This document shows, piece after piece, positions 46,767 to 52,855 of a DNA stretch of 64,000 nt (position 1 is the stretch's first letter; each line of letters starts with the position of its first letter). The notes under the pieces are model-generated. The model was not told the origin of the DNA, ran no database searches, and saw nothing but the letters and a program-made list of their open reading frames with translations. The translations under genes were made by a program, and so were the position numbers. Origin of the DNA: an uncultured Pelagibacteraceae bacterium (GTDB taxonomy: Bacteria > Pseudomonadota > Alphaproteobacteria > Pelagibacterales > Pelagibacteraceae); the NCBI GenBank assembly GCA_902523125.1, contig CABYYA010000004.1, forward strand, positions 3,421 to 67,420, given 5' to 3'.

Positions 46767-46977
46767 AATAAAGTTGATTCGTTAGTTAATTTATTGTGGT
46801 TTTTAAATCACAAATTGTATTTAATTTTAAAAAATGAGTAAAATCAATGTAAATTAATGATAATTATGTCTTCTATTAAGTGGTTTTATTTGGTATTTAA
46901 CCACAACTTTTGCTTGGGGAAGCCTAAGCTTAGTTTATATAAACTAAAGTAAAAACTAACTAAAGAGGGAGTTTTTT

Positions 46978-48156: not shown

Positions 48157-49173
48157 ATGAAAAAAACTGATGCATTAATTATTGGAGCAGGTCCAACAGG
48201 ACTGTTCACTGCTCATCAATTAAAATTAATCGGTTTAGATTGTGAGATAGTTGATAATTTAGATAAAATTGGAGGGCAATGTATCGAACTATATCCTGAT
48301 AAGCCAATTTACGATATACCCGCAGTACCGGAATGTACAGGAAAAGAACTTACTAATAATTTATTAAATCAGCTAAAACCTTTTGATATCAAATTTCATT
48401 TAAGTGAAAGAGTTGAAAAGGTAAAAAAAGAAGATAATAATTGGTTGGTAAAAACTAGCGGCGGTAATTCTTTTTTGACACCAAATGTAATTATTGCAGG
48501 CGGGGTTGGTTCATTTGAGCCTCGAAAATTTTCGCCAAAAGAGTGTGAAAAATTTGAGAACAAATCGTTGTTTTATTCGGTAAAAGATAAAAACATCTTC
48601 AAAGGAAAAACAGTTTCAATTTTTGGAGGAGGAGATAGCGCATTAGATTGGGCTATTGAGTTATCAAAAGAATCTAAAGTTAACTTAATACACAGACGAG
48701 ATGAATTTAGAGGTGCACAAGCTACTGTTGACAAAATGCACGCATTAGTAAAAGTCGGTAAAATAAATCTTTTTACTAAATATCAAATGGCGAATGTACA
48801 TGGGGAACAAATGATAAAAAATATTGATATCAAACATGATAATGATGAAATAAAAAACTTAAAGACTGAATATGTTTTAGGTTTTTTTGGTCTTATTATG
48901 CAACTAGGACCAATTACTAATTGGGGTCTTAATCTGAATAAAAAAACTATTGAAGTAGATACTGAAAAATTTGAGACTAATCAAAAGGGTATTTATGCAG
49001 TAGGTGATATTTGTAATTATCCTGGCAAATTAAAACTAATTTTGTCTGGGTTCCATGAAGGAGCTTTAGCAGCAAGGGCATGTTTCAAATTAGCAAGACC
49101 TAATGAAAAATATAGATTTGAATTCACAACAACTTCAACAAGCTTATTGAAAAGACTTGGAAAAAAAGAGTGA
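48157..49173 (+). CDS. TrxB-like ferredoxin-NADP+ reductase
   Basis: GAGPTG, GGQC.ELYPDKPIYD, GGGDSA and YPGKLKLI motifs; no CxxC. Confidence 0.88.
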   Translation: MKKTDALIIGAGPTGLFTAHQLKLIGLDCEIVDNLDKIGGQCIELYPDKPIYDIPAVPECTGKELTNNLLNQLKPFDIKFHLSERVEKVKKEDNNWLVKTSGGNSFLTPNVIIAGGVGSFEPRKFSPKECEKFENKSLFYSVKDKNIFKGKTVSIFGGGDSALDWAIELSKESKVNLIHRRDEFRGAQATVDKMHALVKVGKINLFTKYQMANVHGEQMIKNIDIKHDNDEIKNLKTEYVLGFFGLIMQLGPITNWGLNLNKKTIEVDTEKFETNQKGIYAVGDICNYPGKLKLILSGFHEGALAARACFKLARPNEKYRFEFTTTSTSLLKRLGKKE

Positions 49174-49799
49174 TAGATCTTTACTCAGCAAATACACCTA
49201 ATGGCAAAAAAATTAGTATTATGCTTGAGGAAATTGGATTTGATTACAAAGTAATCAAAGTTGATATTAATAATGGTGAGCAATTTAAAGGTGAGTTCAA
49301 AAAAATAAGTCCTTTAAGCAAAATTCCAGTAATTATTGATCATAAAAATAAAAAAACGCTCTTTGAGTCTGGAGCAATCTTGATTTACTTAGCTGAGTTA
49401 AGTGGAAAATTTTATAATTCTGAAGAAAGATTAGAAATCAATCAGTGGCTTATGGCCCAAATGGGTTATGTTGGGCCAATGTTAGGACAACATCATCAAT
49501 TCCATCATTATAATCCTGGAAAAAGTAAATTTGGCGAGGAAAGGTTTTTTAAAATTTCTAAACGAATATACAAAGAGTTGGACGAGAGATTATCTAAATC
49601 AAAATATTTATCAGGTGATAATTACACTATTGCAGATATTGGGACATTCCCTTGGATAGCAAGACACGAATGGCATGATATTGGCCTTAAAAATTTTAAA
49701 AATCTTACCAGATGGTACGAGGAAATATCAAAAAGAGATGGTGTAAAAAAAGGATTTGCGTTTATGGATAAAAATGAGTTTCCACCCAAACCATATTAG
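49170..49799 (+). CDS. Glutathione S-transferase (YfcG/YghU-like)
   Basis: TPNG, KIPVI, FESGAIL and YTIADI motifs. Confidence 0.9.
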   Translation: MIDLYSANTPNGKKISIMLEEIGFDYKVIKVDINNGEQFKGEFKKISPLSKIPVIIDHKNKKTLFESGAILIYLAELSGKFYNSEERLEINQWLMAQMGYVGPMLGQHHQFHHYNPGKSKFGEERFFKISKRIYKELDERLSKSKYLSGDNYTIADIGTFPWIARHEWHDIGLKNFKNLTRWYEEISKRDGVKKGFAFMDKNEFPPKPY

Positions 49800-49900
49800 T
49801 TTATTGAGCTAAGCAATCTAAACAAAGAGGCAAAAATTCCATGACCTGAAACCTCTATGGCAAGGACAATGATAATTATCAAAAGTATTTTTGTATCCAT
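49796..49900 (-). CDS. Putative 34-aa membrane microprotein
   Basis: Manual translation MDTKILLIIIIVLAIEVSGHGIFASLFRLLSSIN*; its ATG overlaps the upstream stop (TAATG). Confidence 0.55.
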   Translation of the reverse strand: MDTKILLIIIIVLAIEVSGHGIFASLFRLLSSIN

Positions 49901-50025
49901 TAACTAAATACAATAAATAACAAAATTATCCAAAACAAACCATAATAATAATATATATACTTTTTAGTAAAATAATAAGTTACTGGATTATGAACTTTTT
50001 TAGTTTTTTTCTTTTTTTTAGTCAT
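49900..50025 (-). CDS. Putative 41-aa basic, C-terminally anchored microprotein
   Basis: Manual translation MTKKKKKTKKVHNPVTYYFTKKYIYYYYGLFWIILLFIVFS*; its ATG overlaps the dksA stop (ATGACTAA). Confidence 0.5.
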   Translation of the reverse strand: MTKKKKKTKKVHNPVTYYFTKKYIYYYYGLFWIILLFIVFS

Positions 50026-50572
50026 CTGCGTGAACTTTTTCATCTTTTTCATGTTTTTCTTGAGCAGCAATTGTATACTTTGCGACTGGTCTAGCCATAA
50101 GTCTTTTTAACCCTATAGGCTCTGCAGTATCAAGACAATAACCATAAGTATCTTCTCTAATTCTTGCTAGTGCTTTGTCTATCTCTGAAATGAGTTTAAT
50201 TTGTCTATTTATAGCTTTCATTTCAACATTTTTATCAGTGTAGGAGCTCGCTTGATCTACAATATCAGCTGAAATGCTATTGTCATCTAAACTTCCATTA
50301 TATAAAGCTTCATTATTTGCTCTAACCAAATCTTTTCTCCATTCTTGTAGCTTCATTCTAAAAAACACTTTGTGTTTTTCACACATGTATTTTTCAGTAT
50401 CCTTTGGAATATAAGTCTTAGAAATTTTAATTAAGCTTTTAATTGTATCTTTAGCTTTTGCTACTGTAGTTTTAACAGGTATGATTTTAGCTGCTGTCTT
50501 AATTTTAGTTTTACCGGCAGTTTTATTCTTTGCTTTTACAACTTTTTTTTTTACTTTGTTGGTTTTAGCCAT
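50018..50572 (-). CDS. dksA: RNA polymerase-binding factor DksA with a Lys-rich N-terminal extension
   Basis: DIVDQA coiled-coil tip; YGYCLDTAEPIGLKRLMARP; start moved to ATG 50572, downstream of the promoter. Confidence 0.92.
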   Translation of the reverse strand: MAKTNKVKKKVVKAKNKTAGKTKIKTAAKIIPVKTTVAKAKDTIKSLIKISKTYIPKDTEKYMCEKHKVFFRMKLQEWRKDLVRANNEALYNGSLDDNSISADIVDQASSYTDKNVEMKAINRQIKLISEIDKALARIREDTYGYCLDTAEPIGLKRLMARPVAKYTIAAQEKHEKDEKVHADD

Positions 50573-50594
50573 ATTTTCAAATTGAATTCGAGGG

Positions 50595-50622
50595 AGTATA
50601 TTCAGCAAAATATTGCTGTCAA
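50595..50622 (-). promoter_or_regulatory. sigma70 promoter of dksA
   Basis: TTGACA-N16-TATACT on the minus strand, followed by a CCCTCG discriminator. Confidence 0.7.
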
Positions 50623-50651
50623 GCAACCTTAATTATTGTAATTATTAAGTT

Positions 50652-51971
50652 ATGATCAGTTTAAACAGAAATATAAATAATATATTTTTTATTTTTGCTC
50701 TATCACATTTATTAATTTGGACTGTTGTTCCAACAATAACAAATAAAAATTTACCCTTAGATGTGATAGAAGCATTAGCATGGGGTAGTAATCTAGATTG
50801 GGGTTTTAATAAACATCCACCGGGTAGCGCATTTTTTCCAGAAGTTTTTTTTCAGATTTTCGGCGCTCAAGATTGGGCATATTATTTTTTAAGTTCTTTA
50901 TTTGTAGTTATTTCTTTTTATTTTGTTTTTAAAGTTGCTGATGAGATTTTATCTAGCAAATTATTAGGTCTTTTTTCTGTTTTAATTTTAGAGGCAATCT
51001 ATTTCTATAATTTTACAACACCCGAGTTTAATGTAAATGTATGCCAGCTCCCATTTTGGTCTTTAGTTGTTTATTTTTCGTGGAAAATTTACTCTTCAAA
51101 AGAGATAAGATTATTGGATTGTTTATTAATCGGTCTATTTAGTGCAATAGGATTTTTATCAAAGTATTTATTTGTTTATCTATTAGCATCAATCTTTTTA
51201 CTTTTTATGTATTTAGTATTAATTAAAAAAGATAGAAAATTTGATTTCAAATATTTTATCACTTTAGAAGTTTTTTTAATTTTATTAATTCCTCATTTTA
51301 TATGGTTATATGGTAATGATTTTATCACAATTTTTTATGGCTTAAAAAGAACTGGTGTAGAACTAAGTTTATTAAATCATTTTGAACAGCCAATATTTTT
51401 CTTACTCAAACAAGTAGGAACACTTCTCCCGTTTTTCTTTTTGATTTGGTTATTGGTAAAAAAAATTAAATTTAAGTTTGATATTAAAGATAAAAAGTTA
51501 CTTTTTTTATTAGCCATAAACCTATTACCAATTTTATTGATTTTTATTACTTCAGTAATAATGGGTTCTAAAATCAGAACTATGTGGATGACACCCTTTT
51601 ATTTATATTTTGGAGTAATTTTTATTTATCTTTTGAAATCACAAATTAATGTTAAAAGATCGAATTCTTTTTTATTGGGATTTTTGTTTCTATTTTTTTT
51701 GTCTCCAATTATTTATTCTTACGTATCAATTTCTCAAACAGATAAAAGAACTGATTATCCTGGAAAAGAGATTGCATCTAAAGTTCAATTAATTTGGAGT
51801 AAAGATTTTAATGGTCAAATTCAATTCGTGACTGGAGACGAATGGAAAGCTGGAAATTTATCGTATCACTTAAAATCACGACCAGTTTGGGAAGGAACTA
51901 CCAATACTGAGATATTGAAAAATGCATCACAATTTATTTGTGTTGAAGATGTTTGTTTGGGAAGATACTAA
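50652..51971 (+). CDS. GT-C fold integral membrane glycosyltransferase (GT39/ArnT-like)
   Basis: Many TMs; D..E...WG...DWGFNKHPP and LSKY motifs. Confidence 0.8.
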   Translation: MISLNRNINNIFFIFALSHLLIWTVVPTITNKNLPLDVIEALAWGSNLDWGFNKHPPGSAFFPEVFFQIFGAQDWAYYFLSSLFVVISFYFVFKVADEILSSKLLGLFSVLILEAIYFYNFTTPEFNVNVCQLPFWSLVVYFSWKIYSSKEIRLLDCLLIGLFSAIGFLSKYLFVYLLASIFLLFMYLVLIKKDRKFDFKYFITLEVFLILLIPHFIWLYGNDFITIFYGLKRTGVELSLLNHFEQPIFFLLKQVGTLLPFFFLIWLLVKKIKFKFDIKDKKLLFLLAINLLPILLIFITSVIMGSKIRTMWMTPFYLYFGVIFIYLLKSQINVKRSNSFLLGFLFLFFLSPIIYSYVSISQTDKRTDYPGKEIASKVQLIWSKDFNGQIQFVTGDEWKAGNLSYHLKSRPVWEGTTNTEILKNASQFICVEDVCLGRY

Positions 51972-51985
51972 AATAGGATTATATT

Positions 51986-52855
51986 ATGAAAATAATAATT
52001 TTGACCCCAGTATATAATGACTGGCAATCGGTATATAAATTAACCGATGAAATTAATAGCTTATCATTAAACCAAGATTTTGAAATTTTAGTTTACATAA
52101 TTAATGATTATTCAAATCATGATCGTCCGGACTTTGAAAAAAAATTAGAAAATATAAATTCTATAAAAATTTTTAATATGAAAAAAAATCAAGGACATGC
52201 AAGATGTATTGCCACCGGTTTAAGATATATTTTTGAAAAAGATAATTTTGATTATGTCATTCCAATGGACGGCGATGGGGAAGATAGACCTGAAGAAATT
52301 AAACTTTTTTTGGATCAAATAAAAAAATCACAAGATAAACCTATTGTGGGAGAAAGAATTAAAAGATCAGAAAAAATGATATTTAAGATTTGTTACCAGA
52401 TGCATAAATTTATCACATTAGTATTTACAAGCAAGTCAATTAAGTTTGGAAATTATACCTGTTTACCAAGATCATTTGTTGAGAAAATGATTAATGAAAA
52501 AGCTACTTGGAATAGTTTCTCGGGTTCTTTAAAAAAAATTGAAAATGATTTAATTTCTATTCCCTCTATTAGAGGTAACAGATATTTTGGACCATCTAAA
52601 ATGAGTTTTATCAATTTAATTCAACACTCACTTTCAATTATTAGTGTTTTTAGAAAAACCTTTTTAATTCGTTCAGCATTATTTATAATAATTTATATTT
52701 TGATGATTAAAAGTAATGCATCTATAATCACTGCAATACCTCTTATTTTTTTATTAATAGCTGTTTATTCTGTGTCAAATTTGGCATTAAGAGAAAACAT
52801 GAAGGAATTTAAAAATTGTTTAAGTCAAATAAACGATATCGAGAATATTAAATGA
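51986..52855 (+). CDS. GT2 polyprenol-phosphate glycosyltransferase (GtrB/ArnC-like)
   Basis: PVYND, NDYS, NQGH and MDGDGED motifs; two C-terminal TMs. Confidence 0.85.
   Translation: MKIIILTPVYNDWQSVYKLTDEINSLSLNQDFEILVYIINDYSNHDRPDFEKKLENINSIKIFNMKKNQGHARCIATGLRYIFEKDNFDYVIPMDGDGEDRPEEIKLFLDQIKKSQDKPIVGERIKRSEKMIFKICYQMHKFITLVFTSKSIKFGNYTCLPRSFVEKMINEKATWNSFSGSLKKIENDLISIPSIRGNRYFGPSKMSFINLIQHSLSIISVFRKTFLIRSALFIIIYILMIKSNASIITAIPLIFLLIAVYSVSNLALRENMKEFKNCLSQINDIENIK

Follow-up and report, generated by a model that had tools for sequence, protein, structure and literature searches.

Two small hydrophobic proteins, probably of separate unnamed families, encoded in overlapping frames behind dksA in a Pelagibacteraceae genome

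Two small open reading frames between dksA and a glutathione S-transferase gene

This work concerns two small open reading frames (ORFs), sORF1 and sORF2, in a stretch of 64,000 nucleotides (nt) from an uncultured Pelagibacteraceae bacterium (GenBank assembly GCA_902523125.1, contig CABYYA010000004.1, positions 3,421 to 67,420 of the forward strand). The whole of this stretch is called the window here. The two frames tile, on the minus strand, the gap of 218 bp between dksA and a convergent gene for glutathione S-transferase (GST), as was established by direct reading and translation. The four genes concerned are listed below in positions of the window, with the lengths of the peptides in amino acids (aa).

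50025-49900, minus strand: sORF1; ATG 50025-50023, TAA 49902-49900, 41 aa
49900-49796, minus strand: sORF2; ATG from 49900, TAA 49798-49796, 34 aa
50018-50572, minus strand: dksA; 184 aa from the ATG at 50572, TAA 50020-50018; Pfam DksA_N 5e-13, zf-dskA_traR 7e-8
49170-49799, plus strand: GST gene, convergent; TAG 49797-49799; Pfam GST_N 1e-14, GST_C 4e-10

A first-pass annotation, made by a model from the letters of the window, had described two minus-strand ORFs that fill this gap completely, and its coordinates and all three overlaps were borne out. The end of dksA reads GCA GAT GAC TAA, with the ATG of sORF1 lying within GATGAC, and the overlap of the dksA stop and the sORF1 start is ATGACTAA. 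The stop of sORF1 and the start of sORF2 overlap as TAATG, in which the final A of the stop (49900) is also the A of the sORF2 ATG. At the other end, the convergent stops of sORF2 and GST share TTAG.

The GC content of the 230-nt sORF region is 23%. How often such an arrangement arises by chance was estimated by shuffling the 230 nt 20,000 times with dinucleotide content preserved. An ORF of 41 aa or more was found in 4.9% of the shuffles and a single ORF of at least 34 aa in 12%, but two same-strand ORFs starting with ATG, each of at least 30 aa and together covering at least 90% of the region, were found in only 7 of them (0.035%). The unusual part is therefore the tiling rather than the length of the ORFs.

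Coding status and selection

Two hundred genomes of the same family were searched in six frames. Open frames like sORF2 turned up in 10 of 19 genera, and several genomes of the window's genus had frames like sORF1 directly 5ʹ of sORF2. In the alignments of these homologues, variability among the codon positions was greatest at the third. The summed ratio of nonsynonymous to synonymous differences per site (pN/pS) was 0.39 for sORF1 in frame, against 0.97 and 1.34 in the shifted frames, and 0.32 for sORF2 in frame, against 0.58 and 2.97; the shifted frames of both contain many stops. Some pairs of loci had near-identical peptides at saturated synonymous sites, such as L027 and L029 for sORF2 (pS 0.71, pN 0.01) and L023 and L030 for sORF1 (pS 0.87, pN 0.05). 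The sORF1 frame was open in 10 of 10 loci despite homologue lengths of 37-43 aa, and the sORF1 stop overlapped the sORF2 start in all 10 pair loci, as ATGA or GTGA in six and as TAATG in four.

Because selection is strong and specific to the frame, we take both sORF1 and sORF2 to be protein-coding, with high confidence from these comparisons. The first-pass annotation had considered them real genes, to be judged by dN/dS and by the conservation of their frames; the in-frame ratios, the conserved frames and peptides, and the conserved overlap coupling all agree with that opinion.

The idea that they are chance open frames in a non-coding 3ʹ region of dksA is already contradicted, and we give it next to no weight. 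It could draw on the 12% of shuffles with a single ORF of sORF2 length and on the lack of any match in Pfam, NCBIfam or PDB. Against it stand the rarity of the two-ORF tiling, the frame-specific conservation with saturated synonymous sites, and the conservation of the peptides in unrelated genomic contexts. A scan of the locus found no terminator-like site across the sORF1-sORF2 stretch behind dksA, and an Rfam search of both strands of the locus at E up to 1 returned a single chance miRNA hit, inside dksA.

The two protein families

The sORF2 family (alignment A1, 21 sequences) consists of peptides of 31-42 aa with the consensus ..KNKK-IILIIxIILxIELSGHGILASLxRLL... A short basic head is followed by a hydrophobic helix of about 15 residues, a turn, and an amphipathic helix with a conserved Arg/Lys. 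The motif I-E-x-S-G-x-G is invariant in the 21 sequences (I15, E16, S18, G19 and G21), and R28 is nearly so. The window peptide follows this pattern, with 34 aa, MDTK and then ILLIIIIVLAI, IEVSGHG...R, and an amphipathic helix. In the structure predicted by AlphaFold2 with the family alignment (mean predicted local distance difference test score, pLDDT, 89.5), helix 3-17 and helix 22-33 are separated by a four-residue break at S-G-H-G. The first helix is uniformly hydrophobic (Eisenberg hydrophobic moment, muH, 0.10), and the second has a muH of 0.62, with values of about 0.6 in two other variants of the family. The Kyte-Doolittle maximum over 15 residues is 2.9, and there is no lipobox or Cys.

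The sORF1 family (alignment A2) consists of peptides of 37-52 aa with the consensus MKKK.SK.NSISFLFAKKYIYxYYPFFWIILLLYLFLK. Eight columns are invariant: F19, K21, K22, I24, Y27, Y28, W32 and L35. The layout is a poly-Lys head, an aromatic belt (KKYIYYYY..W in the window), and a C-terminus whose hydrophobic stretch extends to within 0-2 residues of the stop. The window peptide has this layout, matches the family profile with an E-value of 2.6e-21, and shares the overlap of its stop with the next start (TAATG). AlphaFold2 predicted a disordered Lys-rich head and one long helix over residues 14-40 (pLDDT 75), and the Kyte-Doolittle maximum over 15 residues is 2.2. The last ten residues are variable yet always I, L, V, F or Y, and the C-terminus was for this reason read as a lipid-facing segment. 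Substitutions in the hydrophobic segments of both families are conservative exchanges among I, L, V and F. The first-pass annotation had described a Lys-rich head, Tyr-rich middle and hydrophobic tail in sORF1, and a hydrophobic helix with an amphipathic tail in sORF2, much as the families show.

From these predicted structures, both peptides are most likely small inner-membrane proteins. sORF1 would be a tail-anchored membrane peptide held by its aromatic belt and hydrophobic C-terminal helix. By the positive-inside rule, which places lysines on the cytoplasmic side, its poly-Lys head would be cytoplasmic. sORF2 may combine a membrane anchor with an interfacial helix, its invariant Glu and small-residue turn serving as a packing or contact site. 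A complex prediction for sORF1 and sORF2 with both alignments scored 0.04, a value that speaks neither for nor against binding.

Both families are confined to SAR11 as far as they were followed. Copy numbers were taken from 150 genomes of the same genus, which are related and in many cases incomplete, so that the counts are descriptive only. The sORF2 profile found exactly one copy in 100 of them and the sORF1 profile a single copy in 78. More widely, the sORF2 profile matched 74 of 140 genomes of the family and none of 60 genomes of the order's second family, and only 2 of the 164 genomes taken from the 18 other genera of the family matched the sORF1 profile. When 1.84 billion representative proteins were searched exhaustively with HMMER, the sORF2 family gave 63 clusters, all with SAR11-like sequences, many of them carrying spurious N-terminal extensions from gene callers. 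Called proteins similar to sORF1 numbered only four in a collection of 5.8 billion sequences. The exact peptides of the window were absent from a collection of 15 billion proteins; sORF1 is present letter for letter in the ESM Atlas. Similarity searches of the ESM Atlas gave unnamed "hypothetical protein" clusters only, at 0.79-0.81, for sORF2 and nothing usable for the sORF1 family. The sole name on sORF2 homologues was "hypothetical protein [Candidatus Pelagibacter sp.]" (e.g. MDC3053840.1).

Scans of both peptides and both family alignments against Pfam and NCBIfam returned sub-threshold noise only (Ac81, YobH, Lysis_col, DUF5989, CcoS), and a comparison of the family profile with PDB sequences gave nothing meaningful. 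The first-pass annotation had recognised neither family, and both are indeed without a name. DUF5989 (PF19451) was considered for sORF2, as its members are small membrane proteins of similar size in which a basic head precedes one hydrophobic helix and a C-terminal motif with Gly/Ser. Membership was rejected: the best match was E 0.21 in one of the 21 sORF2 members, the cut-off of 27 bits was not reached, and in the genome of the window itself the Pfam model did not hit this locus.

Three metagenome proteins (P0048, P0050 and P0053) join the C-terminal half of sORF2 to another protein, as unverified chimeras. The partner is a DctM tail in P0048 and, in P0050, a head that we take to be TatC-like. 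In P0053 (L130:2501-2962) sORF2 is fused to the N-terminus of a GT2 glycosyltransferase on a polished contig. Because neighbouring genes on that contig are fragmented, this fusion is probably an artefact of an assembly indel, and it was set aside as evidence.

Genomic context of the two genes

We consider the best explanation, with a probability of about 0.8, to be that the two frames encode genuine small hydrophobic proteins of separate, unnamed families restricted to SAR11, that their placement behind dksA is the lineage-specific position of a small gene or gene pair able to relocate and not a functional tie, and that an accessory or anchoring role is likely. On the far side of dksA, the window contains two glycosyltransferase genes.

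50652-51971, plus strand: membrane glycosyltransferase of PMT_2 type (GT-C), divergent from dksA; Pfam PMT_2 5e-25
51986-52855, plus strand: GT2 glycosyltransferase, 14 nt after PMT_2; Pfam Glycos_transf_2 3e-11

The context of sORF2 was surveyed at 40 further loci of the same genus (arrowheads give the direction of each gene). The commonest arrangement, dksA< PMT_2> sORF2> GT2>, was found at 22 of the 40 and has sORF2 without sORF1. The arrangement of the window, PMT_2< dksA> sORF1> sORF2> GST<, was found at about 12, and carB> sORF1> sORF2> at 4; the remaining few were otherwise arranged. In other loci the sORF1-sORF2 pair also lies 3ʹ of a GT9-like or PhyH gene. Packing is tight in the PMT_2 context. 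Of 20 such loci, 13 have the ATG of sORF2 overlapping the stop of PMT_2 (ATGA), and 12 have the stop of sORF2 overlapping the GT2 start; where it does not, the gap to GT2 is at most 4 nt. Adjacency of PMT_2 and sORF2 was seen in a second genus at one locus. Elsewhere among the other genera, sORF2 was found 3ʹ of genes for a DctM transporter, a glutathione peroxidase, an rpoH-like sigma factor, a DEAD-box helicase and an M24 peptidase, and at the sigma factor and peroxidase loci the coordinates give a start/stop overlap of sORF2 with the upstream gene. In the loci fetched from other genera, sORF2 was never next to dksA.

Compared with the majority arrangement, the sORF2 of the window is found across the divergent dksA, at a distance of about 750 bp from the PMT_2 start, and the junction of 14 nt between PMT_2 and GT2 is empty. 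The GT2 of the window shares 53% identity with the GT2 encoded 3ʹ of sORF2 in locus L006. In four complete genomes without both sORFs, dksA and GST are about 10 bp apart.

Two further observations were made on these arrangements. When window positions 48157-51971 were compared with the corresponding locus of one complete relative (L004, in G073), protein identity was 100% for sORF1, 97% for sORF2 and 97% for GST, against 82% for dksA, 75% for PMT_2 and 84% for an FNR-like gene. This mosaic of identities suggests recombination breakpoints flanking the GST-sORF block. In some genomes an ORF of 429 aa (L027:223-1512 in G164; L129) sits beside the sORF pair or beside dksA. It has no Pfam match and a weak similarity to the PMT_2 protein, and it may encode a second, divergent GT-C-like membrane protein.

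Expression and the link to dksA

Neither sORF has a purine-rich, Shine-Dalgarno-like stretch at its ATG, and each ATG overlaps the preceding stop; translational coupling from dksA would thus be the simplest account of their expression. A consensus scan gave one candidate start for the transcript.

50595-50622, minus strand: promoter-like site TTGACA-16-TATACT upstream of dksA; 11 of 12 matches, a pattern match only

This candidate promoter could drive a transcript of dksA, sORF1 and sORF2, on which both peptides would most likely be made by termination and reinitiation, with dksA as the likely source of ribosomes and transcript in this genome. As no terminator-like site and no spare DNA lie between the genes, co-translation of the sORFs with dksA is plausible here, judging from the arrangement of the sequence.

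The first-pass annotation had gone further and proposed a dksA operon in which small membrane proteins possibly connect the stringent response with the envelope. We find this very improbable. The overlap coupling of the pair to the dksA stop in the window and in about a third of the sampled loci of the genus, the promoter-like site 5ʹ of dksA and the lack of a terminator-like site between the genes speak for such an operon. However, sORF2 is found more often between PMT_2 and GT2, the pair also follows carB, GT9-like and PhyH genes, and sORF1 alone precedes an arginase-family gene, as described below. Complete genomes keep dksA without either sORF, and the sORF2 loci fetched from outside the genus never adjoin it. 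Since the contexts vary and DksA is retained without the peptides, we see no functional tie to dksA. What stands of the earlier proposal is that the two are real genes of membrane type, packed behind dksA and probably co-expressed with it in this genome; the link to the stringent response, tempting as it is, is corrected as unsupported because the linkage to dksA is not conserved.

sORF1 at other sites

In several loci (L080:1479-1600, L082, L083 and L084) sORF1 is unlinked from sORF2 and lies directly 5ʹ of an arginase-family gene, which is followed by an aldehyde dehydrogenase gene; the overlap is ATGA or GTGA. In genomes without sORF1 at this site (L133 and L134), a homologous ATG-plus-lysine run is itself the start of the arginase-family gene. 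For this reason sORF1 looks like an insertion of about 130 nt just after that start. Whichever gene comes next, the sORF1 stop overlapped its start in all 14 loci read (ATGA, GTGA or TAATG).

This regularity raises a serious rival to a membrane protein, namely that sORF1 is mainly a regulatory upstream ORF (uORF), acting as a nascent-peptide or leader sensor or as a coupling adaptor, and yields no stable membrane protein. Translation of sORF1 as far as its stop would then govern initiation at the gene that overlaps this stop. A peptide of 37-52 aa would still be largely within the ribosome tunnel at termination, as in the arrest peptides TnaC and SpeFL. The downstream start is that of sORF2 here and of the arginase-family gene elsewhere, conservation is strongest in the block FAKKYIYxYYPFFW, 10-25 residues before the C-terminus, long runs of A encode the N-terminus, and many conserved uORFs have been reported in SAR11 genomes (PMC6429828). 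The details fit less well. The last 10 or so residues are variable but hydrophobic, which is the pattern of a lipid-facing helix and not of a motif in contact with the tunnel. Overlapping genes are usual in the packing of this genome, genomes without sORF1 use the homologous arginase-family start without it, and the Rfam and terminator scans at the locus found no RNA structure or attenuator. We therefore think a mainly regulatory sORF1 improbable, and prefer a small membrane protein.

The changes of site could also be those of a selfish or toxin-like cassette of small peptides, comparable to type I toxins or the entericidin pair. Both peptides form short hydrophobic helices, their presence or absence is polymorphic at the exact dksA-GST junction, there are several insertion sites within one genus, and sORF1 was apparently inserted at the lysine-run start of the arginase-family gene. 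But both genes are strictly single copy, and purifying selection has acted on them for long and across genera. There was no sign of flanking repeats or of an antisense RNA, Rfam gave no match, and the Cys and lipobox are missing from sORF2. This minor rival is less probable still than a regulatory sORF1. Type I toxins such as Hok, TisB, Ibs and Ldr are marked by an antisense or overlapping regulatory RNA, often by several copies per genome, and by toxicity when overexpressed; for the sORFs, one copy per genome and no Rfam match on either strand were observed.

A bolder reading, to which we would give long odds, makes sORF1 a "plug-in" microgene that can relocate, alone or together with sORF2, and that brings neither promoter nor ribosome-binding site. 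Its insertion points would be gene boundaries marked by a lysine run or A-tract (the dksA stop, the carB stop, the arginase-family start). There it would borrow the translation of the host gene and, through its overlapping stop, hand the ribosomes on, perhaps serving the downstream gene as a nascent-peptide checkpoint. If true, this would be a form of gene mobility combined with translational control in a genome group that, to our knowledge, has almost no mobile elements.

Candidate role of sORF2

Under the preferred explanation, two genuine membrane proteins, sORF2 would most likely assist or anchor a larger membrane protein as one of its small subunits. Because its commonest home in the genus is the operon of PMT_2 (GT-C), sORF2 and GT2, the best candidate partner is this PMT_2/GT2 module of envelope glycosylation. 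This assignment comes from synteny only and is tentative, and we hold it to be doubtful rather than probable. It does supply a concrete partner that can be tested.

Several observations weigh against our explanation or parts of it. A helix of 15 residues, as in sORF2, is short for spanning a bilayer. sORF2 was not found in about 40% of the high-quality genomes of the genus that were searched, many of them single-contig, and PMT_2 and GT2 abut without it in the window and in genome G041; the module thus does not need sORF2. The link to PMT_2/GT2 is limited to two genera, and in other genera the neighbours of sORF2 are unrelated. Nor is an obligate sORF1-sORF2 pair likely. Among the 150 genomes of the genus, 71 had both sORFs, 29 only sORF2, 7 only sORF1 and 43 neither; the two genes were adjacent in 56 of the 71 and unlinked in 15, and it is this unlinking, together with the 29 genomes that have sORF2 without sORF1, which argues against dependence of one on the other.

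SAR11 bacteria are among the most abundant organisms of the ocean, and in genomes as streamlined as theirs, any DNA that is kept is expected to be of use. Since both microproteins are under purifying selection, single copy and present in most genomes of the main surface genus of this streamlined group, they are likely to be useful. Neither family has a name, and sORF1 is rarely called by gene finders. The switching of hosts with overlap coupling always kept is a clean natural example of how a microgene without a promoter survives in compact genomes.

Comparison with known small proteins

AcrZ, KdpF, CydX and MgtS are small accessory subunits of the bacterial inner membrane. The two peptides share with this class a length of 30-50 aa, one hydrophobic helix, the lack of an enzymatic domain, a frequent absence from annotation, and a frequent position coupled by overlap within or at the end of an operon. 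They differ from it in that there is no sequence similarity, the families are confined to SAR11, and the neighbours change even within one genus. A small overlap-coupled membrane protein missed by annotation is thus a well-known kind of object, and as far as we found, both families are undescribed.

Another parallel for sORF2 is offered by mini-subunits of membrane glycosylation machines: OST4, which pairs with the GT-C enzyme STT3, and DPM2/DPM3, which pair with the GT2 enzyme DPM1. sORF2 is a one-helix protein of about 35 aa whose gene is placed between genes of GT-C type (PMT_2) and GT2, overlapping both, at 22 of the 40 further loci. The likeness is an analogy only; some genomes have the PMT_2-GT2 pair without sORF2, and other genera have sORF2 elsewhere. 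Arrest and leader peptides (TnaC, SpeFL, MifM) control the downstream gene by ribosome stalling that depends on the peptide sequence, often together with an RNA switch. The geometry of sORF1 would suit this class, its stop overlapping the next start; scans for RNA structure and for terminator-like sites gave nothing.

Conserved sORF and uORF motifs have been described in the SAR11 strain HIMB5 (Stav et al. 2019, PMC6429828), with peptides that are Ser/Lys-rich, contain PPDT, or are Lys-rich and followed by a terminator. They resemble sORF1 and sORF2 in the group of organisms and in being short conserved ORFs in apparently intergenic DNA, recognised by third-position variation. By context and peptide description, on which the comparison was made, they differ, as none is listed with a dksA, GST, PMT_2/GT2, carB or arginase context. 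A survey of marine small proteins (PMC12856327) gave no usable detail on SAR11 families.

Other observations near the locus

The DksA of the window begins with about 65 additional residues, rich in Lys, Ala and Thr, ahead of Pfam DksA_N, which covers residues 69-138. Its zinc finger keeps only one of the four cysteines (C-L-D-T ... Y-T-I-A-A, compared with C-x2-C ... C-x2-C). Its sequence suggests a DksA that does without zinc and has a basic tail resembling histone H1.

The window also contains a long intergenic region between prpE and a proteorhodopsin gene (46767-46977). This gene context is the same as that of HRC-1, a candidate cis-regulatory RNA motif with 956 examples that lies between PrpE and a bacteriorhodopsin-like protein (PMC6429828).

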